A DNA stretch of 20,000 nt from contig MU004233.1 in assembly GCA_010405405.1 (NCBI GenBank), positions 2,829,314-2,849,313 on the forward strand, written 5' to 3'. The number at the start of each line of letters is the position of its first letter. Position 1 is the first letter of the stretch. Under the pieces are notes generated by a model. It was not told the DNA's origin. It made no database searches and was given only the letters and a program-made list of their open reading frames with translations. The stretch is from Microthyrium microscopicum. Taxonomy: Eukaryota. A program made the translations under genes and the position numbers. Shown piece after piece: positions 1 through 20,000 of the stretch.

Positions 1-1270
1 GCTTTCTAAAGATACTGACGCATCATGTCCAGACAAGAGGCCAACATTGATCGTATTGCCCACAGTGTGCTAACTTAGCAATAGCTACTAAGGCCTAAAT
101 CGACGGACGAGCAAGCGCATGGACGATCAAGATGGATGCCATCTCTTACCTCAGCGACCCAACAGCTTGGAACCATTAGTGAAGATTTTTGGGGGCAGTG
201 GAAAAAGGCTGAAGCATTTGATAGGTGTAGTTGCGATGTTGCAGTGCTGTTGTGCTTCCAGGGCGTCCGTGTCAACCGTTAAAAGCTAAGGAAGCTATGC
301 CCAGCTAGGTTAAGCGGATCAGGGGATTTAGCGGACGAGCTTGCATAGTCTCATGGAAGGGGACCAACAACTAGTGGCAAAGATGAATGGTCCAAAACAT
401 GGGCTTTCACGTTGGTGATACAGCACAAAGAGCGCATCCTAGAGCTCATGTTGTTGTTTGAGCTGCGCCGAGGGCGGCCACCAAATCCGGTGGTTGAGGT
501 CGAGTTGCATGGAATCGCCCGATAGTGGTTACACGACACCAGCAATCCAGAAGTCTGGCTGTATTTGCTACCGCGGCCTGCCTGTCGACTGGCCATGGCT
601 CTCGAGTTGATGCCGGTACCGCACGGGATGGTGTCCGTGGTTGCTACTCTCACGGCTTGGAGCAGCTAGATGGCGCCAGTTGAGGACTGATCAGGTTGCT
701 CTAGGACTCGAAAGGTCGACTCCGACAGGATGGTTTGTACAGAAGGATAACAATGAATGAAAAACAGCAAAGAGAAAAAGACAAGCGAGGTTGGGAGTGG
801 ACCAGACATCGATGTCGTCCTTGCACAAATAGTAGTGGCTCAGAGAGTCACTTTGATTGGCCACTAAGGGCCAGTTCTACGCCATGATCCATCCAACTAC
901 CGTACCGTACCTCTCCACCATCTGATCTGATCGCTACTTCCAGTCCTTCCCACTACTGATTCTGTTCAGGCCACGCAGGCTTGCTCTCACTGCATGATAC
1001 ATACATCTCGCCATCTCGTTACTGCTTGGCTGCCATGTGGGCCGTAGATCAAGAGGCCACGGTCGACAGTAGCATGGGCAAGGGATCCCGCTGCTGCTTG
1101 AGTACCTGCATTGTTCTCAGCTGCACATTGATCACCCACGTTCATTCAACGCTCTGATTGACCGATCGTCCCGTCTCTATCTATTTGCTATGTTCTACCC
1201 CGTCGGTCTTTCGACTCGCCGCGTCCACGTATTTCGGGTGGGTAGACGCTCTGAGACAGCGAGGCTGCCT

Positions 1271-1346
1271 GTAAGCACCCGATCGGAGAATATTCTGCGA
1301 CTTTCGTTGACCCACTCTCCTCTGTCTATGCTGAACCCCTATGCAG
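1271..1346 (+). other. Putative spliceosomal intron (76 nt) of an unannotated plus-strand transcript
   Basis: GTAAGC donor, pyrimidine-rich interior, GCTGAAC branch-like site at 1330, TGCAG acceptor. No long ORF is associated. Confidence 0.4.
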
Positions 1347-4300
1347 GTTTCCGATGGACAATGATGCGATCTTGCAGCGCCGAGTTCGGCTGGATGATCT
1401 GGATGTTTTGATTGCTTTGATGATGGAGTAATCGGGTTTCTGGAAAGCGCTTTCTACCAAACAAAAAGCAAACATCGAGTCTCCCGGTTTCACTGCATTC
1501 GCAACGGCGATTCGAGTCGCCGAACTGCAGACATATTTTGACTTTGTCGGTCCGGACCGTTTTGTTTACTTTTTATCCGTCGTAATGCACAGTTGCATTG
1601 ACCATTTTTTTCTCCTATCGACATTGATGCCATCCGCTCTGTCCTTGATCCAGTGCTTGGAACTTTCATAGAGTACGTGTCTATCCTGACATGTTTTCGA
1701 ATACGATGGGAAATATGGCATTTCTTCTTTAGCAGCGTCGATGAATACCATCGTCGTCTGTGGGCGGGTGCTTATTTGGTTTACCACTACGTTGGCGCCA
1801 CATCATGCTAGTCCATACTACCTTTCTAGAATACTTGTCATTGGCTGCCTGAGAAGAATATGTGGGTTGAAGATTTATCTTGTATCTTTACTACATATTG
1901 TTCCAACCACACCTCTCATCCCAAACTGATTTTCGACTGTCATTAATGATCATTAAACTTTATTGATGAAAAAGCAACCCTGGGTATCTTGGTACATCAA
2001 ACTTATCACGGAAGCACGGCAGCATAAGGCGCTGTGTAAGTATTCATTCTAGTTTCACAATGTAGAGCTACAAGTTCAGCCTTCTGCCAGTACCGTGGGC
2101 ATTCATACCATCAAGTCGGTATACTTGTCACAGGCGCAAAACGCTGATTTGATGCAAATTTCTCATTAAACCACATCATGCAACAGTTGACTGGCTGGGT
2201 CAAGTTCTTTGTTACATCAACTCGATCAGGAGAGGCTTCATGGGTGTGCTCAAAAAGCAAAATGGGCGGATTCTCATCACCCCAATTATTTAGCTCGAGC
2301 GTTGAATGTAACGTTTCTCTCCCGTGTGATATCCGGCCCTTTCGGCAGTATAGCACGTGGAATATATCGTTCTTTGGGGCCGAAAATTATAGCTCCACCT
2401 GCATACCAAATTTCGAACGTCTAGATCGCCCAATATGTAGCTGGAAATTCTGGAATAATAAAGTTTCTGGTAGTCTTCTCTGACGTTCGCATTAGCGTTC
2501 CATGCGGCATATATGCTGCCTATGCGAAGCTCATCAACACCTCTTCGATCACGATGTCGAAATACTACAGTGACATTCCAACCTTGACATCTACGACCAA
2601 AAAGTTTAAACCAAGGAGGTTCACAAACAAGCATTGCTAACTTAATCAAGCAAACTATCCAAAACTAGCCGGCACTAGAGACACAGTGTTTCTTAATATG
2701 GATATTATAGATCATACCCCTTTCGTCCTCCTGCCATCAGCAATCAGTCCCTGAAGATATGTTGTAGAGAACCATCACATCCAGAACAATCTGATCCATC
2801 GGTTACGCCGCATTCAACAGTGTCTTACTGCCAACCGCTGACACCACGTTTCAACCTCTTGAAGGATGAAGAGATCGAGCCCAGCCGGCCGGTTGAACGG
2901 CGACCAAGCTTAGACCTTGTGTTCTTATTGTTTGTCCAGACAAGCATTTTCAGAGCTACTGACTGGTCCCCAGATTATCGGGACGGATCGTCAGGCGAGA
3001 AGTTGGCACCAGAACGTATAGTACAGGTGTGCAACGCCCTGCCAGCTTCGGACAGTTTTCTCTTACTCTAAGCCCCTTTCGTCAGGCTATTTGCCAACTT
3101 GGCCTTTCTGGAGTTAGTTGAAGACCTTTTGCTCTTATCATGGCCCAGCTCTGTGCTATTGACCATGGATTTCTTAGAGTTCTAGACCTTGAAGTATTGC
3201 TCATTTTAAACATGGCCCTCCATGTTCAGGCTCCACCGGCCGTAAACGCCCGTCTGAACGCCCGTCTCGTGAATTGTAACATCATCCGATCTTCAACTCT
3301 CCTTGTGGTACATTACAATATGCCGGTTGAGTCCGACAATCAAACGGGCCCCAGCCTCCTTCTCCATGGGCAGAGATAGGCATCTCGTAATTATGCTGGG
3401 TTTCTGTATGTATGATCCCGCACAATTTCATTGCGTGAAAAGGCGTAAGATGCATTTCATCATGCAGATGGTCGGCGAGCTATTTTCCTGAATGAGTATT
3501 ATTCAAGTTCTTCCATGGCGGCGAGTTTGTGCAAGACTGCATATCTGCAATTATCCGGTGATTACAACGATTGCGTAGTCCTACTGTCTGACAAACAGCT
3601 GTGATCACAAACTCGTCGCCTTGTTTTGTGGATTGTGTGCGGAGAGCAGAAAATGATCTTCAGTTGGCAGAACTGCACGTCCGTGGGCTAATGGGAGTAA
3701 TGATGTAGTTATTAACACTATTGCTCAGGATCGAAGGGACTAGAGGATCTCCCATAGTCAAAGGGGAAAAATTCAGAGCCTGAGAGCCTTTATTGTCTTG
3801 TTGGTGAGCGCTATAGGTACGTGACGCCATAAGGCTGAGCGTAAGGCTGAGCACCGAATGCTGCACACCTGTCTCAAGATACTAGGATACTGCAAGTCAG
3901 AATAAGTCTGTAGCTTCTGAAAACCCAAATAAAAAGACTCCAAGTAATTAAATTCCCATATGCTGTTATTGTAAACATGTGTTTGCAAGATCAATGACTG
4001 GAAACGTATGAAAAACATAACTGGCGTACTGCCATTGGCTTCACTGGCTCACATTTGCTGTGCTCCGTGATCAACTTCTTTGATCCCATCAAATACGTAG
4101 ATATCAGGACTATTCATTGGATACGATGGACGAATAAGGGTGCTCTCATTATACACGGTGGTGGTCACTACCGTGGCAGATAGGAGGGCCCCATTTGTTG
4201 TCTGTTCATTGATTGTCGATAACGTCGATTCAATCTACCGAGATTTCTGCGGAATCAATAGTTTTAGGGAGTAATTTTGACATGTCGAGTCCCTTAGCGA

Positions 4301-4405
4301 AAAGAATTGTTACAGATATAAGCACTGCCTGGCCGTACTTAGTGCTATGGCACTCAATTAGCCTTGTGCTAACATGAGGCACATGAGTGCAGTACCATTG
4401 TTTGA

Positions 4406-5534
4406 CTAGCAATTAGCTACAACTGCTAAAGGAAGCCGTCTATGCATTCGTGAGATGAGTTCAACATAACTAGCTTCATTTTCCTGCGTGATCACTCCAT
4501 GCCGTACGAAGAAATCGACCATAACAGCAGCAGAATTAGTCTTGAACTCCTCGTTAGCCAAAGCTTGTTTGACTTCGTCCACTGACATGAGGTAGAATTG
4601 TTCCACTTCATCATCATTCGGCTTAAGCTCAAAATCTGCTGGTAACTCCATGTCATATAAGTAGAGTATCTCTGGCGAGATCAGATCCTTTTCTCTTCCA
4701 GACGGCGAGTCATACATGGTGATGTATGTCAACGTGCCAACAGATCTTAGGCGCTCGGCTACCATATTTCCTGGAATCGACGCTTCTTCCATTGCTTCAG
4801 CGGTAATGCATTGGACTGGATCATCAGATGCTTTGACTCCTGGAAAATTTCAGTACAAGTTTAAGATGTCGAAGCACAAGCGATCGAAACCCAAGAAGGC
4901 AGGTTGGGAGCCTTGTAGTGTGCTAGGAGCCTTCAAATGTTCTGGGAGGAGATTTGTACACGAGAGAATCTTACCTCCTGCTACTGTACTGTCCAGCTTT
5001 CCTGGATAGGTGAAAAGCTTCCTTGATCTGCGCGGCACCCAGATCTTGATACCTTCCGACGTCTGGACGTACGCCGTCATATGCGCTCCGCGAGCAACGA
5101 TGCCAAACAGAGCATGCGAGAATCTCTCTACATGACAGAAGTAATTTGCACCAACAATGCGATAGGGCTCACTATGCCGACGATGAAGAATCTCGAAGAG
5201 ATCATTGTCAATGGCGTCGCTAACAATAGTATCAAATGCAGAAACACAACTCTTTTCGAGGTCCGTGTCGTCAGAGACCACCAACTGGACCGTCGTTTTC
5301 GCATGATCGACGCTAAACGCGGAACTCCAGGGCATACGCTTCACAATCTCAGGTCGCATCATGCCATGAGGGCGCGTATCCTGTGGGAGATAGAGCTTAT
5401 AGAAGTCAGGCTGCTCATCGTAAGGGAATCTTGTCTCGCATCGTTAGCGCATGATTTACTGCTTGGCTAAGGATTGCTCACCGATCGCAGGCCTCGACTA
5501 GCTCCAAGTAAGACTTTCCAGGCTCTTTCTTCAT
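4406..5534 (-). CDS. Nudix hydrolase, YJR142W-like (thiamin pyrophosphokinase-related) family; 3 exons 5534-5482, 5429-4975, 4839-4406; 313 aa
   Basis: Splicing joins ORFs 4850..5362 and 4406..4792 with an upstream exon into one 942-nt frame: MKKEPGKSYLELVEACDRFPYDEQPDFYKLYLPQDTRPHGMMRPEIVKRMPW...FGIVARGAHMTAYV...IWVPRRS...TYPGKLDSTVAGG|VKASDDPVQCITAEAMEEASIP...PEILYLYDMELP...PNDDEVEQF...FKTNSAAVMVDFFVRHG. These motifs and the divergent Nudix box match my recollection of this fungal family. Both introns are GT-AG and restore the frame. Confidence 0.9.
4840..4974 (-). other. Intron 2 of Nudix gene (135 nt)
   Basis: GTAAGA donor, ACTGAA branch-like site, TTTTCCAG acceptor; removal rebuilds VAGG-VKASD..EAMEEA (Nudix box). 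Confidence 0.88.
5430..5481 (-). other. Intron 1 of Nudix gene (52 nt)
   Basis: GTGAGC donor, GCTAAC branch site, AAG acceptor; removal joins ACD-R-FPY in frame. Confidence 0.85.
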
Positions 5535-5969
5535 TTTTGCTTGCAGAGGTAGTGTGTTTGTTGAGAACTTGAGCAGAGTCTAGAGGTGAGTTTTAGGTTT
5601 CTCTAAGTGCGGCACGTTCCGCTCGGCTAGTGGACGCAGCCGTGATCAGCATGTCCATTGTTGTTGCAGGAGCAAACAGTGAAATTCCAAATCGAGGCCG
5701 AGTTGCGGTTCTGGACTCATGATGTATGACTAGCGGTGTAATTTTCAAGTTGAAAGTCGTGGCGGCGCTGATCTTTGGTAAGCTCCTTGCGGCGCCCATG
5801 AAATCTTATAAATAAAACCGCAGCGTCTCAGCCGCGGTCTTGCTGTCTTGTATTCTTAATTAGATATATAACGCATCGCCTGAGTGTCAAGCCGTACCAT
5901 GATGCGATGGTTCTCGCCAGCGCGTGCTTTTGCATGCGGCACTTCATGCAAAGGCTCTGAAGCTTCGCC

Positions 5970-6590
5970 TCATTTGGAAGACGTCTTGGTCTCAACCACC
6001 TCTTTGACGACCTTAGCAATCAAAGATTTCTCTACCATATGCCCTTCAAATGCCCCATCTGGCCTTGTGCAAGCCTTCATGACTTCTCCAATATTGACCT
6101 TATGTCCACTCGCGCTCAGCTCGTCCACAACCTTCTGAACAACGGCTCGCACCTCATGTTCGGTCATGACCTTGATATCGCCTGCATAGCCCTCCAGTAT
6201 ATTGAGCTCCTCCTCCTCCTTAGCAACCAGATCTTTGCGATCTGCCTCGTAGAATTCTTGTATCGATTGCCGTGTGGTGCCCATCTTCTTCTTTATTAAA
6301 GCCAGCAGCGCGAGATCATCATTGACTGGAGCGGCCGTCTTGGAGCTGTTTGTAATGTCTGCTAGGATTGCACGAAGTACGGTTAGGCGGGGTTTATCGC
6401 GAGCGCGCATTGCGGTCTTGAGGTCGTCGCGAAGTCGCGAAAGGAGGGTCGAGGGCGGCGCGTTTGTGGATGTTGAATATGATGATTTGCTCCATATTGT
6501 TTGGCGACTTGCCCTGGGAAGCTGACATAGGCGAAAAGTGATTAATGAGCAGAGAGTATGGCGGTATAAAACATGAGCGCGGGAAACCAT
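5970..6590 (-). CDS. AIM41: Altered inheritance of mitochondria protein 41 (GatB/YqeY domain), 206 aa, probably mitochondrial
   Basis: First ATG in the 5970..6677 frame is at 6590. The N-terminus is Arg/Ser/Leu-rich and lacks acidic residues (presequence-like), followed by YqeY motifs LLSRLRDDLKTAMRARDKPRLTVLRAILADI, EFYEADRKDLVAKEEEELNILEGY and NIGEVMK. Confidence 0.9.
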   Translation of the reverse strand: MVSRAHVLYRHTLCSLITFRLCQLPRASRQTIWSKSSYSTSTNAPPSTLLSRLRDDLKTAMRARDKPRLTVLRAILADITNSSKTAAPVNDDLALLALIKKKMGTTRQSIQEFYEADRKDLVAKEEEELNILEGYAGDIKVMTEHEVRAVVQKVVDELSASGHKVNIGEVMKACTRPDGAFEGHMVEKSLIAKVVKEVVETKTSSK

Positions 6591-7064
6591 AGTTGTTGGG
6601 ATGCTGAAAAAGCCAACGACGTGATCAATGAGGGTGATGGACGCTTGGTTATAGCAAAAGGAGAGTTTGCTTTTCAACTGAAACTCAAAGGAAGAAAGAG
6701 ATGAAAGAAATGGGACCTTGGAGATGTCCGCATTGAGCTTGTGAGCTTCATGATGTTTTTTGGATTAGACATGGAGCAAGTAGAAAACATGAGAAATCCA
6801 CGCTAGTGTGATTTGAACTTGATCTAACCGAATCAGGGGCTGTCAACCGGTGCATGTGAGGTCCTTGATTGGCCAGTCTAACTCTAGCCAGCCACACTAA
6901 CTCTGGAGATGGGATCCCTGCAAGTTCAACTTCAACTTCAACTCCAAGAAATTTTCTGCCACCACAAAAAAGTCCAACATCCCGTCAGTTCCGAAAAGAT
7001 CTCGCAGCGATTGCTCTCCAGCACGCGGCTAGCCCACTGCCATACACAGCACACAGTATCCATT
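6591..7064. promoter_or_regulatory. Short divergent intergenic region, a likely bidirectional promoter for AIM41 and MPP10
   Basis: Head-to-head genes with 474 bp between the likely start codons (318 bp if MPP10 starts at 6909). Inferred from gene layout only. Confidence 0.6.
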
Positions 7065-9182
7065 ATGGCCAAAGCTATTCAGACTCTCCCTTCGCATACA
7101 GCAGCCATCGACGCCCTCAAATCTACCCCACATGAATTTCTCCAACCCACTCCAGATTTACACTCCTCTTTCCTCGCGCTCTCCAAATATTACCTGGATC
7201 CAGTAGCCTCTGCCGTCAGTAACACTCAACTCGACCGCCTTAAGACTTCGCGCCAAAATCGCAAACGGAAGCGAAGAAATGGCGAGGATGAGGAGCCTGT
7301 TCTACGATTAAAGAGTGTGGTCACTCAAGGATTTGACGCACAACAAATATGGGAACAGGCACGTCGAATTGCTGCAGCTGTAGATGTCGAGGTGCAACGC
7401 GCGAACGAGATACAAGAAGCTCAGCTTGCAGAACTTGACTCGTCCTCTAAAGAGGATGAGCAGCAGTATGCGAATGGAACCATGTCGCTAGATGAAGAGT
7501 CGGAAGACGACGAAGGTGCAGAGGAATTAAGTGAGATGGATGAGGATGAGCCTGGGGATTTGGAGGACGATGATGCTCTCGAGGACTTGGATAACGAAGA
7601 TGAAGAAGAAGACTCGGACTCCGAGACAGAAGAGGTTCAAGCAAACGGCGGCATCCGCAAAACCGATAAATTTGGGCTCAACGATGGTTTCTTTTCTATT
7701 GATGATTTCAATCGAAGAACAGAAATGCTTGAGCAACAAGATTTTCAGGGCGACCAGGACTTTGATGCTGCCAGTGATGAAGAAGATATTGAATGGGATG
7801 CGGATCCTACTGGCATCGAAATTCTTGATGAACCACAGGCCAGGAAATCACGACATCATGATCTGAATGAGGACGACGAGGACGAAGATGACGAACTGGA
7901 TGATGAGGAGAATGGGCCTACGTTTGGCGATATGGATCTCTTTGCTGCAGAAGGAGAAAGCGAAGAAGATGACGACGACGATATAGAAGACGATGATGAT
8001 GGACCACAAGTCGAAAATCTCAAGTACTCTGACTTCTTCGAACCACCAGCTGGCGCAAGAGGCAAATCAAAGTCCAAAAAGCGAACTTTATCTAATGGCA
8101 ACAATGCTGAGGTTGCGATACTGGACGATGAAAACGACATGGAGCGCACAATGGAAGCTGTACATAGGGATTTGTTCTCAGAAGAGTCCGAACCTGAGGA
8201 TGACTCTGAAAGTGGTCAACCCGTCAATCTATCCACCCACGAGCGCCGCAAGGAAGTCATTCTCAAGCAAATCCGCGAACTCGAAGCAATAAATGTCTCC
8301 AAAAAGCCATGGGTTCTGTCCGGGGAAGCACGAGCATCAGACCGTCCTACCAATGCGCTTCTCGAGGAAGATTTAGATTTTGAACGCGCAGGAAAGCCAT
8401 TACCGGTCATCACAAAAGAGACTAGTGAAGAAATCGAAGCGCTCATCAAACGCCGCATTCTTGCGGGTGAGTTTGACGAGGTTCGCCGCCGAAGACCAGA
8501 TGAAGCTTTCACTTCAAATCTTGGAAGACGAGGTAGAGTCTTCGATGAAGATATTGATGCACCACGGAAAAAGGGTCTGGCTGAGGTCTACGAGGAAGAG
8601 CACCTCAAGCGTACTGACCCCAACTTTGTCGATCAGCGAACCGCGAAAGTCAAGAAAGAACACGCTGAGATTGAAGCAGCCTGGAAAGATGTTGCTCACA
8701 AGCTGGACTCTCTGGCCAGTTTCCGATACAGACCAAAACCAGCTGAGATGAACATTTCAGTCCGCACTGATGCTCCTGCCATGGCTCTTGAAGATGCCAG
8801 ACCCAGTGGTGTCGGTGGAGATATTGGCACCTTAGACCAACTGGCGCCACAGGAGATATTTGCTCCTGGTGATGTGAAAGAAAAGGGCAAAGTCGTGACT
8901 AGAGGCGGCGCTGTCATTGATCAGGTGGAGCTGACTCGCGAGGAGCGCAAGCGTAGACGACGCAGAGAAAAGGAGAGAGCGAAGAAGGCTGGTGGTCAGA
9001 AGGAAGATGTCAAGCCGGGCGGCAAGCCTGCTAATAAGAAGAGTGATGAGAAGAACCAAATTGCAGGCAACCTCAAGAAGGGAGGTGTTCAGATCATTGG
9101 AAAGAGAGGAGATCTGCGGGATGTTGAAGGCAATGAGGTATCTGAGGCTAAGAAAGCTACGACGGGCAGTTTTAAGCTTTGA
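7065..9182 (+). CDS. MPP10: U3 snoRNP / SSU processome protein Mpp10, single exon, about 705 aa (alternative in-frame ATG at 6909)
   Basis: Long ORF with acidic tracts and Mpp10 motifs: GFDAQQIWEQ, DKFGLNDGFFSIDDFN, LKYSDFFEPP, LSTHERR, KKPWVLSGEA..RPTNALLEEDLDFE, PVITKETSEEIEALIKRRI, LDSLASFRYRPKP, LAPQEIF, basic ELTREERKRRRRREKE and C-terminal SFKL. Confidence 0.95.
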   Translation: MAKAIQTLPSHTAAIDALKSTPHEFLQPTPDLHSSFLALSKYYLDPVASAVSNTQLDRLKTSRQNRKRKRRNGEDEEPVLRLKSVVTQGFDAQQIWEQARRIAAAVDVEVQRANEIQEAQLAELDSSSKEDEQQYANGTMSLDEESEDDEGAEELSEMDEDEPGDLEDDDALEDLDNEDEEEDSDSETEEVQANGGIRKTDKFGLNDGFFSIDDFNRRTEMLEQQDFQGDQDFDAASDEEDIEWDADPTGIEILDEPQARKSRHHDLNEDDEDEDDELDDEENGPTFGDMDLFAAEGESEEDDDDDIEDDDDGPQVENLKYSDFFEPPAGARGKSKSKKRTLSNGNNAEVAILDDENDMERTMEAVHRDLFSEESEPEDDSESGQPVNLSTHERRKEVILKQIRELEAINVSKKPWVLSGEARASDRPTNALLEEDLDFERAGKPLPVITKETSEEIEALIKRRILAGEFDEVRRRRPDEAFTSNLGRRGRVFDEDIDAPRKKGLAEVYEEEHLKRTDPNFVDQRTAKVKKEHAEIEAAWKDVAHKLDSLASFRYRPKPAEMNISVRTDAPAMALEDARPSGVGGDIGTLDQLAPQEIFAPGDVKEKGKVVTRGGAVIDQVELTREERKRRRRREKERAKKAGGQKEDVKPGGKPANKKSDEKNQIAGNLKKGGVQIIGKRGDLRDVEGNEVSEAKKATTGSFKL

Positions 9183-9562
9183 GATACACAAAGCATCTAC
9201 TATCCTCACTTTGCCATATCTGATAATCCACGATTCCATCCTCATTAACTCTCCCAGCTCGGAGTGATTTGAAAGTATTATGTTGCGAGAGAAGTATATA
9301 AGTACCTTTCTGAGTCTTACCATGAGAGCAATACGAGGTTGAAACACGCATTCGCTATCCACTGTCGCAGGAACAAGTTCGCACTATCATATCCGAGCCA
9401 TCAAGTGATGCGAGAGCTCACACACAAAAGGGTAATATCATTCCATATGGAGATTCAGGAAAATTAACACATTCCAAATCATATCTTCCCGCAATCTGTC
9501 AGGCACTGCATAATCATTTCAACAGCTTCAGTCGCCTTCTTAGCTTTATGAATACCTACCAT

Positions 9563-9585
9563 TATATATATATATATATATATAT
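9563..9585. repeat. (TA)11 microsatellite
   Basis: Perfect TA run read directly from the sequence. Confidence 0.95.
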
Positions 9586-12500
9586 TTCAGGTCGCTCGAT
9601 TGTATTCTTCGTTCAAAAATCAATGTGAAAGCCTCCGATAGCCCTGTTGGCAGCCGTCTGGAAGAGATCGTCACGAATGTAAATAACAGCAGACGGGAAA
9701 GACGAGAGTATAATGCTTCTACAGGACACCACGGTAAATATCGTCCTCGAGGCTGCTCAAGCCTCCATGCTATGTGCTGGTTGAAATACAACCTTGGAAG
9801 TGAGAGCCTCATATCCGACCACTATCTTCACCTATTCAAATCAACATGTTGGCACAATGAATGACCCACTCCCATCAGCCTCGTTGGCTCTTAGACGCTA
9901 CGCTCCTTTATCAAGTACTTTATTTGCCATGAAGGACGTACAGGTTCGACTGGTTTATCGAATTCAATGAGAAATATAGCACTCTTTGCTTAAAAACGTC
10001 CGTGGCAGCGATCAGAGTTGATTGGAGAACGCCATTTATTTTGCTATGCCGTTTTCAAATCTGCAAAGGCTCTTTCCAGGATGAGGATAGAACCTCTACG
10101 CATCCTAGGAATGCTAATGTCGGAGACTTGGTTGATGGGGGTCCGACAAGTGACAGAGGGCATCAGCTTCGCTAAACGAAAATTGGAGAGAAAAGAGAGC
10201 ATCATAAGGTTTGTTCTACATGGAGTGGTTGTCTTCTTCCTCCACTAGCAGCCTACATGGCAGCATAAACCTCTTTTGGAACGAAAATGCATGGTTCTAA
10301 TGCTGATAGGCTTACTCCATGGATATAGTGTAAGAAAAGCCACGGTATTGATCTTCATGAATAGTCGCTTCTTGAGTTTGCGCCTTATTGCGCAATATAC
10401 GAAGCGGCTCTTTTGTATCCAACACTACGGGTTCGATGCCATCAATCGCAAGTATGTCGCTATATTGTTCTCTCCTTTCAAGATTAAGGAGGCTCGTTGG
10501 GCGTAAACCTTATGCGAGATAAGTTTTGATCGCCACGGCAAAGGACCCGCCCTGGAATCCTTTCCCGATGAATATAGCATTGAAACGAACTTAATCTGAG
10601 TTTACGGGTAGATAATTACCCTCTTAGAACCACCGTCTTCGAGGAATTCACTTGGATGTGTGGTTACACAGAATAACTTTCAGAGACAAATTTATATTAG
10701 ATCTATCTCAGTCCCAGCCTGGCAAACAGGCATCCATCTCACCAGCCAGGGTGTTCTGCAGACTCGAGTGTCTAGGCTACCATAGCACCTCCTAATGTAG
10801 TATTAGAGAAATCGAAAAGAGAAAACTTCTTATTTGTATCCATGTTGTACCGCAATTGCGCAAAAGTCACGGTAACCTAGCATATTGTATACAAGGGAAG
10901 AACGGGCCGATCCGCTAGGGCGAATCCTACAGGCCCTTTGGGAAGGAGGTATAATATGTTTTGATATGACTGTCAATCAATAACCATCGTGCGAATTACG
11001 GGGTGCCGAGTAAGCGGCAGCGTGGGATGTAAGATACGATAGCAACTTGAACCAAGCGTCTGCCAGGTCGTAGAACGAGACAAGCGTCCGTATCTATCAA
11101 CAAAGGCATGTATGGGTGTGGGTGCGTGGCCTTTTGGTGTGGCAAAGGAGCACTGTAGCTGCGGCTCGGGTGTGGGTAAATGAGCGATATGAGCTGCATT
11201 TCTCCAGAGAATCCTATTTCCGGGGTATGATCTGAGCCTCTACGCGGAGAGGGCAATCAAGTCTTCGGCAGGCAAGGCTGAAACAGCATGGTCCGTCAGT
11301 TTGGTCTGGCAAATTGGACCGAGGGAGGCAACTAAAGGAGGAAATGGGTGTTTTCGGAGACCTCGGATCACAGACCTAGATGAGGGTGGGAGATTGTATA
11401 TCTCGGCAGTGTCGGGCCAGTTGAGTCTATATTATAGATGAGATTTCTTGGTGCGTTACCAGGCCTCTGGTGATGTACCTTGGCGATGGGGATGGCGTTG
11501 GTTTTTTAATGGTTCGGCAGAAGGCCTGTAACTGGCCAGGGCTTTGGCCGGCAATCATTCGGGGAGATGACTGGGGGGCCTCTCTATTAATGAATCTGAA
11601 TGCTTAGGTATGTTGATGGTCCGAGATTGTAGTCCTGCTTCCTCGGCATAGGATTAGCAACTGTGACTCGACGCCGAAGATGACGTTTTCTTTGGCTAGA
11701 GATGATGCAAACAGTCCTTTAATGACAGACTAAATGAGTACTTGAACATTTCGTTCGGTGTAAAGATAAGTTGTATCCAAATGCGAATGTATCTATGCTC
11801 GGTATTCTTAGTACATGTAGATGACTGTTATAAGGGCTCAGACACTCCAGTAGGCAGTGTAGCATGTTTGCAAAAATAGGTAGGATATGAAAGCCGCCTA
11901 GTGTTCGTCTAGATAGAATGATAACCATCCAGGGAACACGAAGCATTAGATGCTTCCGATTGTTCGCTCGCAAGGCTGGCGTGGACTACAGGGCTTTCGG
12001 TCTGCTTTGGGGCTCTACTGTCCTAAATAGGACGTTTGCCGATGCTCTGAACAGACCAGGTTTCCAGAAGGTGATGCGCACCTGGGAGCCGGCTTCTTGC
12101 GAGAAGCGACCGTGCCAGTGAGATTGACAAGTTGTTTGGGCTATAGAACGAGTCAACCAGGGGTATTGGTTTCGATACAGCTTCTAGAAGGTAGTGATGG
12201 TAGATCAGGATTCACAGCGCATGGTTGTCAGCAAGTGGACAAAATAAAAGAGACACTCCAAGTGACTGCGCTGTCTACCATCGCGCTTTGGAAAAAATGC
12301 CCGCTTCAATCACCAGCGCATTCGATGTGAAATAGCGCATTTGACTTGCGAGAGTACCAAGTTGAAGACGTAGCACTTGATGGGAGCCTGTCGTTTATTT
12401 TGTCGACACGTTGGTTGCATGCACAAACATCAAGGAGAAGAGAGGGCTTGCACGCTGACTCTCCGCGGCTCAAACCTCCTGGCGCACCGTTCCGCCCTAA

Positions 12501-14850
12501 TCCAAAAGGAGTGGGCAATATAGATGGCAGATCGCTCAGCCAGAACTGATAAGGGAGATGAAGGGGTTTATCCGCCAAGATTGCGACAGCTTGCATGTAC
12601 GTCGGTCGACATGTGGTTCCAGACAGACAAATACGATGTTTGCCATCACGAAAATTGTCGATTATTCGTGATTTCAATCAAAGATTAACCCAAGCTCTTT
12701 TGACGCAATACCGCCAGGAAAGTGGAGATGCGCTTTTACGGGCGCGAGATGAAGTGATAATGCTGCTGCTGCAAGTCATGTCGCAAAGCGTCATGCAGTT
12801 GCAGAATTGGGGACAATCTCCTGCGCAAAGCCGATGAAAGATTTCTGACAGCCGACTAACGCCTCTCATGTACATTGCTTGCTAACCTTTTCCTGGAAAT
12901 AAGACCTATAACGGTGTTGGAATATCGAGTTTTGGCTCGTGAAAGATAAAAAAAAAGTGTTTCCTATGAGGCTCGGCTTCTCCACAAATGATGCGTGCCA
13001 TCCAATCCTTCTCCGCGATTCAAACACATGGAGAACGCTTTTCAACCCCCACGGTAAGCCTTTTTTGATCGGCCTTGACAGAAGGCGGAGGTCCAAGCAG
13101 TCCGATGCCACCAAATTTGCGGCTGCTCTAAACCCCGGCAATGCTTCTGGCAGCCAGAGCCAAGAGGGTGTGGGATAATTAATACGGAGGATTCCTCAAT
13201 GAGGGCTGCCAACCCCCCTATCCTACCCCAGAGTTTCTTTTAAGGGTGAACTTCCTTAAGCTGGAGACGAGGCGATCATACATGCCAGGGAGGTTGTAAA
13301 CATCGGAGCCCTTGGATGCCAACGCCGACTCCTTCGTTTTGACTTGTCCTTTACGACGGGGCCCTGCTCTGCTGACCCTTAAAAATGTCTAGGTAATTTT
13401 AGCGTATATAGCGTGAGTTTAAGAGTACGCTAAGTATAGGCCTATGTATATAATATAGCTTATAAGGATAAGTAAGAAGTACTTAAACTTAAACTTAGTC
13501 TAGTATATTTAATTAAATTCTTAAGGAGCTTAGTATTATTTTAAGAGTCTTTTAAAGTATTATTCTAATATATATTCTTTAGTTTTATATAAGATAAATA
13601 TAGTAATATAGTATATACTAAGTATACTAATCTATATTATTTTTAACTACTACCTAGTTTATAATAACTAAGTAGTATTAAGTATTTATAAGATAGTATA
13701 TACTAAACTAAACTAAAAATATATTAAGTTAAACTAAAGAGTTAAAGATATATTTTATAATAAAAGCTTATAAGCTTAGTATATAATATTTAATATAAGT
13801 TTCTAAAAGTAATAAGTATAAAAGAATAATTAAAGCTTTAGAGTATTAGTTTATATTTAGAATATCTATTTTAAGAAGCTATAATAAGAAAGTAAGTATA
13901 GTATATACTAAATAATAAATATTAAATTTAAATAATTAAAACTTACTAAATAATTATTTATAAAAGTTAGTAAAGTAAGTATATACTTATTTAAAAAGTA
14001 CTATTTAAACTTTTATTATAAAAGTTTAGTATCTATAAGCTAAGCTTAAGTCTATTATAAAATCTCTTAAGCTATTTAACTTAACTTCTTTCTTTAATTT
14101 CTTCTATATTTTTTAATATACTTATTAGAAATTTATACTTTATTAGTTTATACTAATCTTAAACTATCTACTTACTTTCCTCTACGCCTTTAGCTTAGTC
14201 TTATTCTAAGTATAAGCTAAAGATATAGTAGTTTCTATAATTAATTAAGTATAGTTCTACTTAGTTACTATTTAAATAACGTAAAATCCTAATCCTACTT
14301 TTAGTATCTAAGCCTATAATAAGCTTAGTATATACTAGTAAATATTTAAAAACGTACTAATATAAATAGGTCTAATTATTAATCTTTATTTAGGCTATAT
14401 CCTACCTAATTTATAAAATTAAGCCTAATACGTACTAGCTATAAATTAACTTAGATAGCTTTTTATACTTCTAATTACTTATACGTATCTTTAAGTTATT
14501 ATAAGTTCTTTAAGTATACTCTAGCTAAGTTATCTTAAGATAGTATATTTTAAGCTAGTCTTATACTAAGTATAGGCTAATATAGAGATAGTCTAAGGCA
14601 ATATTCTACTAGGCTTTATTAATATAAACGTATAAATAAAAGTATAGGTTAAAATTAAACTATACTTAGTATATACTAATAATATAATAGTTACTAAGTT
14701 AAAAATAATTTTATAGCCTTAGGAGTAATATATAATTAAATTATTAAGAATAAAATAAGTATAAGTTTCTTTAGTATATATTTAATATAAATAGAACTAA
14801 TTAAAGAATTTAGATATATTATTATATTTATAAGACTTATTTTAATTATA

Positions 14851-15748
14851 GTAAGTTATAAGCTAGTCTTATACTAAGCTTATACTAACTTTATAGTAGT
14901 TAAATATAAATTAATTAAAAATACCTTAAAGCTAATACTAGCTTATATAGAATAGTAAGTTTAAGATTAAGTTATACTAAGTATATACTAACTTATTAAT
15001 ACTTTAGCCTACTAGATTCTTTAATATAGTTAAGATACTACCTAGTTTATAAATAAGCCTAGGTAAGTTTATATTATACTTAATATAGGCTAAATTAATA
15101 TTTTATAGCTATAGTCCTTATAGTAGTATAATTAAAAAAATTTATTAAGATACTAAGGATATTATATAAGTTATAATATTTTAAGCTAAGTACGTACTAA
15201 CTATAGAAGAGCTATTAACTATACCTTCTACTTAATTTATATTAGTTTTTTATTTTATTATTATCTAAACTATAGTTATAGCCTAAGACGTAAAGTAAGT
15301 TAATAGATCTTTCTACTTATAATAAGTATATACTAATTATATAATAGAAGGAAGATTCTTTAAAATCTACTTTACTAGCGTTAGGTAAGTTAATTTATAA
15401 GAACGTTAAGCTTAGTACGTACTAACTAATATATTAGTAGTACCTTTAGGACCTTTAGGACCTCTACTAGCACTAGATAAGTTATTCTAAGCTAGATTAA
15501 GCTTAGTACATACTAACTAATATATTAGTAGTACTACTAAGACTACTAGAATCTTTACTACTACTATATAAGTTATTTTACGCTAGATTAAGCTTAGTAT
15601 ATACTAACTAATATATTAATAGTATTTCTAAGACTTTTAGGACCTCTATTACTACTATATAAGTTATTCTAGACTAGATTAAGCTTAGTATATACTAACT
15701 ATTATAATAGTAGCTCTTTTAAAATCTTTACTACTACTTTTACTACCT
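14851..15748 (+). pseudogene. RIP-inactivated, intron-dense gene relic (about 9 intron-like units in 900 bp)
   Basis: Ordered donor/branch/acceptor units at 14851-14896, 14955-14999, 15063-15108, 15166-15206, 15295-15347, 15385-15437, 15477-15528, 15568-15619 and 15659-15710. Some donors read ATAAGT and some acceptors TAA, consistent with G-to-A mutation. Product unrecognisable. Confidence 0.55.
15385..15748 (+). repeat. Tandem repeat, 4 x 91 bp (52-nt intron-like segment plus 39-nt exon-like segment)
   Basis: CTTAGTAYRTACTAACTA starts at 15411, 15502, 15593 and 15684 (exact 91-nt period). Units share RTAAGTTA...TTAAGCTTAGTAYRTACTAACTA...TAR-TAG. The fourth exon-like segment is more diverged. 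Confidence 0.9.
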
Positions 15749-18700
15749 TTAGCGCTATATACTAGTTATAAGTAAAATTAAGTATAATAACTTATAGTAA
15801 ATATATACTAACTAGTAATTATAGTATCTAGATTTTATAAGTATAAGAGTAAGGTACCTATTATTTAAATTATAGCTTTAAAGTATCTACATTATAAGTT
15901 ATATTTAGCTTATATAAACCTTATATTAACTAAATTATTAAGAAACTTAGGCTTAAGTATAGTATATATTAAAAGTTATAGGAGTTTATTTTATTATTTA
16001 GCTAAGTAATATTAGTAAGTATAGGCTAAATATAGGTAAAAAGATTTATAATATTATAATTTATAAGTAATAAAATAAATATACTAGCTTATACTAAGTA
16101 GAAGTAGCTATATAATATAATAAGTAGTTAATAGTTTATTTATACTTAGCTTAGGCTAAATATAAAGAACTTAACTATAATTTTTTCTTAAACTAAGTAA
16201 CTTACTAAAATAAGATTATAATATTTAACTATAATATTTAAGTAAATAAGTATAATAATAGTAATTTAATATATACTATATATAAATATAGGTAATAGAA
16301 GTATTATAGTATAAAAAGATCTTATAGTAAATACTACTATATACTAATTATAGATAATATAAAGTAGTTTAAAGATTAAAATATATTTAACTTAGAGAAT
16401 AATTACTTTATATTAAGATAGTAACTTCTTTACTAGTACGTATATAGCTTATAGATATACTTTACTCTTTACCTTTTAACTAATCTAATAACTTAAAAAA
16501 TAATTATTATAATTTTCTACTTAAGTTAAAGGCATACTATATAAGGTTAAAACTTAAAATAAGTATATATCATATTATAAAAATAGTACTTATAACCTAA
16601 ATACTATTATAAGAATGTCTACTCTACTAATAAGTTTAGGCTATAGTAAGTATATACTAGCTATAACCTAATTAGTTATTTCTTACTCTCTAGCTTAATA
16701 GTAGTTAGGTAAGATTAAAGTTCTTATATTTAGTATATTATAAGTATATACTAATAGTCCTTTAGGATATATATATTATAATTATTTTATAATTACTACG
16801 CCTAGTTAAGTATATATTATACTTTTACTTAGCACGTACTATTAAAAACTAACCTCTAGCTTTATTACTATATTTATACTATATATTTAGGACTTTATAA
16901 AGTAGAAAGTATACTACCTAAGAATTACTTATATTTAAAATAAGCTAACGTTATACTAGTTAGTACTCCCTTTATAGCCTCTAGAATTTAATAAGTATAT
17001 TTAGCTAATATATATCTAGTATAGGCTAATTATAAATAGTTTTTATTAATTACTTTATAAACTAGTTCGTTAGCTAGATTAAGGCTTTAGCTTTACTAAA
17101 GACTATCCTCTATAAGATAAAATATATATAATTAGTATATACCTAGTATAGCCTCTCTAACATAGCATAATAGTCTAATAAATATAGAATTTATTCTTAA
17201 TATATACTATAAGTATTTAGGATATTTAAATAGCTTATTAATTTTATTAACTTAAATATAGTATATTATAACTTAATTTAGTATAGAGGTAGTATATATA
17301 CTAATTATAAAGTAGTTAATAAAATTCTTATTTACTAATAGCCTATGCTTAACTTATTTAACTTAGAGGTTTAATTAATAGCTTTAGTAGCGTTACTATA
17401 GTAAATATTAATATCTAGCCTTAATAATACGTATATAATATACGCTAACTAGACTAAAAGTAAACTTTATTTAAAGATAGTTCTATTTATATAGCTTAAT
17501 ATAGATAATAAGCTATGCTTAGTATATATATAATATAGTATAATAAATACTTTACTTCTACGTATTAAAGATATTACGTTTTCTTCTATAATAACTAGTA
17601 TATACTTATTATAGGCTAAAGCTAGACTTAAGATAAATAAGGTAATTTATAATAAACTATAACTTCTTTTTAAGTCTATAGCTTTTATATTAATTATAAA
17701 AGCTTAATAGATTAGTAGGTATATCTACTAATTATAGTAAATATTTCTTCTATATTAATATATAGTAGCTAATAGATCTTTATTTACGTATATAACGTAT
17801 CCTATACTTATTTTATTAAATAGTATTAGCTTACTTCTATATATATATATAATAATTAATCTTAAATTATTTACTTTAATTAGTACGTACTATACGTAAG
17901 ATTAATTTCTTTTTCTCTTTTAGTTTATATTAACTTTATAAAACCTTAAAAAGTAAAAATTTATATATTATACTTATACTTATTATTAGTATAATAATAA
18001 TCTATATAGGCTAAGCTTATATCTATAGTTTATTTAAAATATTACCTTTCTCTTACTTTTTTAACTATTCTATACCTTTAGCTTAAGCCTATCTTAAGTA
18101 TAATAACTACCTATCTTAATTTCTTAGCTTAAGCTAAAATTATATATAGCGTAGATTAATATTATAAGATCTTTAAGAACTTTCTTAGAAATATATATCT
18201 AAAATAAGAATATATTTATAGTAAGTTTAATACGTATTATAGCTTTTTCTACGTCTATACTAACGTTATACTTATAGATTTAATTAAATACTTAAATTCT
18301 AAATATGTCTTATTAATAAGTAAGTTTTTATATTAAGGCTATAGTTAGTACGTATTAAGCTTATAATAAGTAAAACTAATTATACTTTACTTAAGCTAAA
18401 TTAATAAGGTAGCTATAATAATTATAAAGAATAAAGTAATAATTATAATAGTATAGATATAGGCTTAGTATATATAAGAGCTATACTAACCTCTAAATAA
18501 AAAATAGTAAGCTTTTTACTAATTTAGTTAAGCTCTCTATAATTTTAAGCCTATAAGTTTAAGTACTATATAAAACTAGTATATACTAATTATAATCTAA
18601 ATAGCTATTAGTATATTAATAAGAAAGGTATAATCTATAGTTATATTATTAAGATATTTATAAGTATATATATACTTTGCTTATACTTAATTTATTATTA

Positions 18701-20000
18701 ATTAAGTAGCTTTACTACTACTATTAAGTTTAATACCCTAGCCTTAATAAGTTTACTTTACTTATATTTAGTACGTACTTATTCTTTATTAATAGCTAAA
18801 GATACTAAGTTATCTAACTAATTTACTATTAAGGTTAATACTTTCTATTAATAAGTATAATTTCTACTTAGGGCTTATATATACTAACTATATATAGTAT
18901 TTTTACCTTTATAATTCTAGTCTAAGATTAAAAATTCTAGTAGTTTATTAATAAGCTTAGGTAAGTATAGCCTATATATTATATATGCTAGACTAATATT
19001 AATAGTTATATTTATAATAATTCTCTAATCTTTAATATTTATAATAAGTTAAAAGATTTAGTATAAGTAAAATACTTATATAGGCTTAATATATACTAAA
19101 CTTAAGTAGAAAAAATAATTTTACCTTTTATAAACTTATTAGTACTTACTTATTTTATTACTATAAGCTTAGTTATATTAAGTTTATATATAGTATAAGT
19201 TAAACCTTTATTTAATTTAAGCTAAGTACATATTAATATTAATTTAATAAAGAGCTATTACTTTATCTTCTTCTTCTACTTCTAAATATAGTAAGTTTAA
19301 TAATTCTATATTAAGTATATACTAATACTATAAGTAGAGTCTAAAGATAATAAGATTATTACTTTATTACTTATCTATTTTTATAAAAGCTAAAGCTATA
19401 CTAAGCTTAAGGCTCCTCTAAAATTCTATTACTAAATATATACTAAGCCTAAGTCTCTTTTAAAATCCTATAGCTAAGCTTAAGTTAAGCATTATTATAA
19501 TAAGAAGTCTATAGCGCTAAAGAAGTATAAGGCCTTAACTTTAGTCTATACTAAGCTTAAGGCTAAGCCTAAGTATAAGTTAGCTAAGTATAAGCTAAAA
19601 GCTATTAGCTAGCATATTTTTAGTAAGTTTAAGTTCTATTATATAGAGTACGTATTAACTATAAAAGCCTAAATTATATTTAAAGGATATATCTAAGAAG
19701 CTAGAAATAAATTACTAATATATACTAAGGTTAGCTTTGCTATTAAGGAAGAAGATATTATTAATAATAAGTATATACTTAATACCTATAATCCTACTTT
19801 ATTATTATTTTAGTATAAGACTAATATTTAGGCTTAGTATATACTAGACCTAAATTTAGACTATTATAAAGTAAAAGATTTACTAGGCTAAGTATATACT
19901 TATTTTTATATAGTAGTTAAATTAAAACTATAGCCTTAGTATATACTAAAAAACCTATTTCTTTTTCTTTTATAAATTTTTATTCTTTAAGTAATCTAAA

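Follow-up and report, generated by a model that had tools for sequence, protein, structure and literature searches.

Here, we propose that the AT-rich part of the window (by which we mean the whole stretch of 20,000 nucleotides that was analysed) represents a single dead copy of a segment, at least 6 kb long, that is repeated in the genome of a Dothideomycetes-like fungus, and that this segment once carried an intron-dense, internally duplicated gene on the + strand. We hold this reading with somewhat better than even confidence. It is based on the block being saturated with repeat-induced point mutation (RIP), having further copies in the genome, bearing a polar excess of intron-like units, containing a tandem module, and yielding a stop-poor frame once the units are spliced out, all of which were observed directly.

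The AT-rich block extends from 13450 to the end of the window at 20000, has no strand assigned, and was delimited by GC content and dinucleotide indices. Its GC is 0.15-0.23 per 500 nt (about 20% overall), and the host DNA at 1-13450, which is ordinary fungal genic DNA, has a GC content near 47%. Within the block, the observed/expected ratio is 0.05 for CpA and 0.03 for TpG, TpA/ApT is 1.72, and (CpA+TpG)/(ApC+GpT) is 0.03. These indices are the signature of saturating RIP. The host genes adjoining the block are the + strand gene for Mpp10 (U3 snoRNP; 6909-9182) and, on the - strand, an ORF with a YqeY domain (5970-6677) and a weak NUDIX-like ORF (4406-4792). The closest named relatives of the Mpp10 product are from Dothideomycetes (Tothia, Lojkania, Venturia, Verruconis, and others) at 44-47% identity; its sole 100% match is the window's own protein and the next best is 58% identical. 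Given these relatives and the low identities, we take the host to be a Dothideomycetes-like ascomycete of which that protein collection includes no close sequenced relative.

Contigs from four public sequencing runs were aligned to 13000-20000, with a cut-off of at least 80% identity. One run (X1) supplied 233 matching contigs, 156 of them less than 99% identical to the window (77 at 99% or above, 41 at 95-99%, 71 at 90-95%, and 44 below 90%), and these contigs differ from the window at 727 transition places versus 31 transversion places. Distinct contigs of about 90% identity span 15167-15520, 15321-15617, and 15588-15925, so that 15167-15925 is covered free of gaps, joints at contig ends with sides of 20-25 nt having been set aside as repeat-word matches. 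Hence the interval flagged by the first-pass annotation (14851-15710) lies in a multi-copy segment of the source genome. The copies of the segment were nearly identical before RIP and are separated now by RIP-type changes. Depletion of CpA and TpG, excess of TpA, further copies, and differences that are almost only transitions are found together here, and they bear out the earlier view of this DNA as a repeated element. In a run presumed to be RNA, no contig matched 13000-20000 at 80% identity or above.

Blocks of AT-rich DNA degraded by RIP in the Pezizomycotina mostly derive from retrotransposons or DNA transposons with few introns. The present block resembles them in its CpA/TpG depletion, its TpA excess, its sharp GC boundary at normal genes, and the C:G to T:A differences between copies, but is unlike the usual case in that a Pfam search detected no transposon domain and a polar array of intron signals persists. 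The Pfam search, run on all six frames of the block at 13450-20000 with X in place of stops, returned no families at E values up to 1; Rfam gave no matches at E up to 1 and a tRNA scan gave no genes. Purine/pyrimidine-coded self-comparison, direct and inverted, found that the window contains no paired LTRs or TIRs. With no Pfam match in six frames, nothing points to the cargo of a large DNA element or to an endogenous virus, both of which had been suggested earlier.

The intron-like units form a run of 13 consecutive members on the + strand at 14755-16107, each with a donor ([GA]TAAGT), a branch site (CTAA[C/T]), and a YAG acceptor, 41-59 nt in length and separated by gaps of 36-112 nt. The first-pass annotation had described nine such units in the correct order in 14851-15710, at about 10 introns per kb; all nine are present where it placed them (41-55 nt, gaps 36-88 nt), at about 9.6 units per kb of DNA, and the array exceeds its interval. 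Units 1 (14851-14896, 46 nt) and 2 (14955-15007, 53 nt) both read GTAAGT...TACTAAC...TAG, as does unit 6 (15385-15437, 53 nt), the first and best-preserved intron-like unit of a tandem array discussed below. Unit 3 (15063-15108, 46 nt) reads GTAAGT...GCTAAA...TAG, unit 4 (15166-15206, 41 nt) ATAAGT...TACTAAC...TAG, and unit 5 (15295-15347, 53 nt) GTAAGT...TACTAAT...TAG. Units 7 (15477-15528, 52 nt), 8 (15568-15622, 55 nt), and 9 (15659-15710, 52 nt) are tandem copies with ATAAGT donors, and unit 10 (15768-15824, 57 nt; ATAAGT...TACTAAC...TAG) lies beyond the originally flagged interval. All of these units are on the + strand. Since three of the nine are tandem copies of a fourth, the number of independent units in 14851-15710 is six.

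The donors of the nine units are GTAAGT in five and ATAAGT in four. In units 4, 8, and 9, a T precedes ATAAGT, which makes a G-to-A change by RIP plausible there; in unit 7, the preceding base is G and the A is not explained by canonical TpG-to-TpA RIP. The donor G is retained in unit 6, to which units 7-9 are related as tandem copies. The branch [AG]CTAA is present in all nine and lies 6-16 nt before the unit end in eight; in unit 2, 16 nt after the branch reaches an internal TAA and the TAG acceptor is further on. As in U2-type introns, the branch is near a YAG acceptor and the length (41-55 nt) is near the fungal mode. There are no - strand units in 14851-15710, and a single one (15743-15795) overlaps the 13-unit run. 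Most modules measure 90-129 nt, a fairly regular length. GC in the inter-unit segments (0.222) is barely above that in the units (0.191), a point against the gene reading.

RIP enriches TAAGT, CTAA, and TAG, and one might therefore suppose that ordered triplets of these words arise at random, as a pure artefact of composition. All three words hold TpA and are without CpA or TpG, and RIP can make them from unrelated sequence (in simulations, for example, ATAAGT from ACAAGC). We assessed this with a fixed pattern ([GA]TAAGT, 10-45 nt, [AG]CTAA, 3-22 nt, YAG), which finds 23 units on the + strand of the AT block versus 2 on the - strand, with a maximum of 9 per 880 nt. Under strand-symmetrised Markov models (orders 1 to 5), the mean is 5.2-7.5 units and the densest 880 nt hold at most 5-6; of 300 simulations per order, none attained 23 units or 9 per 880 nt. 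RIP simulated to saturation on host DNA (1-13390), with or without extra transitions to 14-22% GC, gives per 13.4 kb 1-6 units on the + strand, 1-4 on the - strand, and at most 2 per 880 nt. The strict GTAAGT form of the pattern occurs 7 times on the + strand and 0 times on the - strand (0.5-0.8 expected), and single words are skewed likewise (GTAAGT 14 on + and 4 on -; TACTAAC 11 and 3). The artefact is thus largely refuted by the Markov models and by simulated RIP of host DNA, and we consider it very improbable. The polarity and the excess establish that the unit array is not chance, and the ordered signals are more frequent than in simulated AT-rich sequence, a comparison of the kind that the first-pass annotation had called for.

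The youngest part of the array is a tandem repeat of 91 nt on the + strand at 15405-15747 (about 3.4-3.75 copies), each copy of which contains an intron-like unit of about 52 nt and a putative exon of 39 nt (13 codons). Tandem Repeats Finder reports it at 15406-15713 with period 91, 3.4 copies, 85% matches, and no indels. When the sequence is recoded as purines and pyrimidines, which is insensitive to RIP transitions, 15405-15656 and 15496-15747 (a lag of 91) are 94% identical. Units 6-9 are the members of this array, and, as 91 is 52 + 39, the length of the exon is a multiple of three. The same recoding found no other direct or inverted repeats in 13401-20000. A degenerate satellite running through the whole block was considered and rejected, autocorrelation showing the 91-nt period alone and confining it to 15401-15720.

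Outside this array, the units are alike in little more than their splice signals. With the tandem copies collapsed, purine/pyrimidine identity in the 16 nt before the branch CTAA is 0.67 versus a null of 0.52, a level reached by none of 2000 resamples, and in the 16 nt after the donor it is 0.50. The 5' parts of the units are at background in gapped local comparisons (z 0.5 and -0.6, tandem copies collapsed), as are the inter-unit segments (z -1.5 and -0.7, likewise collapsed), and no exon homology was found among the older modules. RIP leaves purine/pyrimidine coding intact and so cannot account for similarity that is limited to the branch. Because the similarity is limited to the signals and the extended branch region, the units outside the young tandem array are not copies of one element. 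Divergence to background elsewhere with retention of three ordered signals would be the expected trace of former selection for splicing, which implies, on sequence grounds, that such selection once acted here. The units thus have the properties expected if a single transcription unit on the + strand once contained them as spliceosomal introns, and we regard them as putative introns of that kind.

Did the segments between these putative introns once code for protein? Unit borders were set by the fixed pattern and not adjusted to frame. Removing the units leaves a core at 15109-15893 (+ strand) in which eight exons (15109-15165, 15207-15294, 15348-15384, 15438-15476, 15529-15567, 15623-15658, 15711-15767, and 15825-15893) join into a single frame of 140 codons interrupted by 2 stops, while 15 and 22 stops occur in the two alternative frames; stop density in the AT block is 0.126 per position. 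The core would hold 7 introns in 422 nt of exon, with phases 2, 0, 1, 1, 1, 1, 1. The eight-exon window was picked after inspecting the data, and the accompanying test takes the best result over all 8-exon runs and frames: dinucleotide shuffles per exon gave P 0.0003 (0.03% of 3000 trials), and P 0.0007 (0.07%) when the three tandem exons were forced to be mutual copies. When the removed intervals were slid along the sequence, the stop count was lowest at shifts of -2 to 0 nt, and moving the intervals by 12-45 nt left 9-15 stops. Without splicing, the best windows of 140 codons hold 11 stops (+) and 12 stops (-) in 14700-16160, and 7 (+) and 5 (-) in the whole AT block, and the spliced reverse strand has 9 stops in 146 codons. 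Within the core frame, stops (TAA or TAG) make up 2 of the 17 TAN codons, compared with 51% of TAN words in the block (binomial of about 0.001, calculated by hand). The two residual stops, TAA at 15146 and TAA at 15866, could derive from CAA by RIP; since every residual stop is explicable as RIP-made, an open frame after reversal of RIP (deRIP) is by itself a weak criterion.

The outer six segments do not maintain the frame, and with 13 units removed there is no common frame over all 14 segments (40, 28, and 24 stops per frame in 264 codons; random-phase P 0.48). A test of phase only is weak, at P 0.015, becoming 0.074 with related exons locked together. Much of the stop-free length is low-complexity CTA/TTA repeats, a second frame is likewise open in the tandem part, and outside the tandem part TA dinucleotides have no clear codon periodicity (17/23/27). 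The first-pass annotation had described a gene relic, to be checked by splicing out the units and looking for a continuous ORF. In the present copy, read with its RIP changes in place, that description is partly supported, by units that are polar and conserved at splice signals alone and by the stop-poor frame of eight exons, and not by the outer exons, which lose the frame. Other genomic copies carry small indels relative to the window at 14468-14471, 18451-18461, and 15134, the last being 1 nt inside an A-run of the exon at 15109-15165. Small indels could explain the loss of frame outside the eight-exon core. A second, looser cluster of eight + strand intron-like units lies at 18221-19608 and includes a very good one at 18221-18277 (GTAAGT...TACTAAC...TAG); the frame test on this cluster gave P 0.03-0.22 and no convincing frame, so the method is not always positive.

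The codons of the core frame are mainly CTA (22) and TTA (18), with CCT and GGA also occurring, and the tandem part has introns all in phase 1 and exons of 36-39 nt. As now read, the product of the tandem exons would be rich in Leu, Pro, and Gly. Because NTA codons can derive from NCA or NTG by RIP, before RIP it was probably a low-complexity repeat rich in Pro, Ser, and Gly. In another copy, CCT is found where the window has CTA (differences at 15535 and 15536), which fits the Pro-rich reading. We infer a protein-coding transcript, from which the units were once spliced, with a Pro-rich product.

If the segment carried such a gene, how might its present form have come about? Before RIP, the + strand gene would have had one intron per approximately 100 bases, part of this density coming from a module of exon plus intron that was duplicated in tandem. 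Its most recent copies would be the 91-nt repeat at 15405-15747, each with a 52-nt phase-1 intron and a 39-nt exon of low-complexity coding sequence. RIP then converted CpA and TpG to TpA throughout, which would have destroyed the coding sequence. GTAAGT, TACTAAC, and TAG are without CpA or TpG and survive RIP, while common variants such as GTGAGT, CTGAC, and CAG are pushed towards the consensus. The introns would look uniform because the consensus signals are immune to RIP and the variants are converted to them. In simulated RIP on host DNA, ACAAGC...CTGAC...CCAG became ATAAGT...CTAAC...CTAG.

A further feature of the block is a 10-nt palindrome, AGTA[C/T][A/G]TACT, the core found at the branch site of intron-like units. 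It has 24 sites in the AT block (13610-19947) and none in 1-13449, and is often extended to TTAGTA..TACTAA. The form AGTATATACT occurs 19 times versus 0.7-5.2 expected under the Markov models, the total of 24 being reached with the CG and CA variants. Another genomic copy has C at 15691 and G at 15692, from which it follows that the core AGTATATACT was formerly AGTACGTACT, the un-RIPed form still present in units 4 and 6. A + strand donor lies 8-50 nt upstream of 11 of the 24 sites (about 6 expected from a background of 0.256), and a - strand donor is found at 1 of 24 (about 3 expected, background 0.127). The remaining 13 have no + strand donor upstream, and about half of the sites lie outside intron-like units, so the core is not solely an intron feature. 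Where no donor precedes it, the core may mark the branch site of an intron that has since decayed, or may belong to an unrelated motif that was repeated in the ancestral element.

This spread of the palindromic core across the whole block would also suit a non-genic array of short repeat modules (a satellite or decayed small elements), whose founder monomer happened to contain splice-like words and whose inter-unit segments were never exons. The regular module length, mostly 90-129 nt, agrees with this, as do the plain tandem repeat that makes up the youngest part and the GC of only 16-27% in the first four inter-unit segments; moreover, a RIPed monomer of 100 nt has about a 10% chance of holding a unit (5-7.5 expected per 6.5 kb). 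An array of this kind is difficult to reconcile with the lack of any periodicity or purine/pyrimidine repeat outside 15405-15747, or with modules that have diverged to background yet keep three ordered signals, which implies selection on the signals. Nor does it account for unit removal leaving far fewer stops than are found in shuffles or after displaced removals. We therefore consider the non-genic array unlikely.

The palindrome likewise bears on whether the units belong to a proliferating family of short introns, introner-like or arising by other intron copying, in which, not long before RIP set in, a transcribed repeat took up one insertion after another of units of about 50 nt with a palindromic branch core (ancestrally TTAGTACGTACTAA). 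The shared branch region extends past the usual 7-nt consensus, the core 10-mer is in marked excess (the 19 occurrences given above), and the host groups with the Dothideomycetes, the class for which introner-like elements are described (PMC3609843). The units resemble those elements in looking alike, in having the canonical signals of spliceosomal introns, and in occurring in a Dothideomycetes-like host, but differ from them, as characterised in PMC3609843 and PMC4457414, in length, structure, and extent of similarity. Introner-like elements are about twice as long as regular introns by the criterion in PMC3609843, whereas the present units, at 41-59 nt, are of regular size. Stable structure is not in excess (folding z-scores of -2.06 to +2.10, mean about +0.3, for 10 units compared with dinucleotide shuffles), the units are alike around the branch site and not in their 5' halves, and the sole near-identical copies are due to a tandem duplication that copies the exon too. 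Folds pair the two ends of no unit, as transposon-type introner ends would, the longest 5' stems (units 1 and 2) stopping about 7-11 nt before the 3' end. No internal inverted repeat was found in the block at the purine/pyrimidine level, and TAG/TA words are too common for target-site duplications to be judged. RIP may have erased both structure and similarity, so the departures in length, structure, and extent of similarity are not decisive, though they lower the claim to membership. We consider an intron family of this kind quite unlikely, and the introner-like elements suggested in the first-pass annotation are not supported by units of ordinary length, with no excess structure and no whole-length copies save the 91-nt duplication. 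A more specific version, for which our estimate is equally low, would see introns caught in the act of spreading: mini-introns, each about 50 nt long and with a palindromic core (ancestrally TTAGTACGTACTAA, a branch site on either strand), multiplying in a young multi-copy element by module duplication and insertion at new sites, then frozen by RIP and preserved through RIP-immune splice signals.

Our preferred reading, a dead gene that gained introns in part by internal duplication, has closer parallels in introns duplicated within one gene. In fungi, such duplications by segmental duplication are described as near-identical introns, unremarkable in length and in folding energy, with the flanking exon duplicated (Collemare, van der Burgt and de Wit 2013, PMC3609843), and a Cryptococcus gene cited there has putative same-gene duplications from duplicated exonic repeats. 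Units 6-9 with their 39-nt exons correspond exactly to this description, being 85% identical in nucleotides and 94% in purine/pyrimidine coding over intron and exon. Unlike the cases in PMC3609843, the gene here is dead, saturated with RIP, and located in a multi-copy segment, and the array is embedded among at least 9 further close introns whose exons are not detectably related. Its density of about 10 introns per kb of DNA compares with fewer than 3 per kb of coding sequence in most fungi (PMC3609843). The (stw)introns of the Hypoxylaceae (PMC8469720) are sequence-similar and internally symmetrical, with terminal inverted repeats of 45-55 nt. They share with the present units the character of proliferated look-alike fungal introns with internal symmetry, but here the symmetry is limited to a 14-nt palindrome at the branch site, within a unit that measures only 41-59 nt in all. 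A literature search on RIP acting on splice signals returned nothing in titles and abstract openings, a result that pertains to those titles and openings and makes no claim of absence from print. The locus is thus an unusual combination of known things, a RIP graveyard and a same-gene exon-intron duplication.

If our reading is true, a fungus of a normally intron-poor group once had a repeated gene with approximately 10 introns per kb of DNA, and the tandem exon-plus-intron module offers a concrete case of intron number rising through segmental duplication. As consensus splice signals lack a RIP target and variants are converted to the consensus, intron arrays can outlive exons in RIP graveyards. 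Surviving arrays would then be readable as polarity markers of dead genes. In turn, gene finders may build intron-rich models in RIP-degraded DNA. As the relic is dead and has no protein family assigned, the wider impact is modest.

Two minor observations concern the block as a whole. A second small tandem repeat is present at 19390-19471 (period 42, 2 copies, 82% matches), with a weaker third copy at 19540-19581. In addition, a run from another study that is labelled as another organism (X5) contains short contigs identical to parts of the block, at a depth of 2-3 and within 13770-18126, among them 15053-15222 and 17934-18126 with 0 differences; these could represent the same species under another label, or carry-over.
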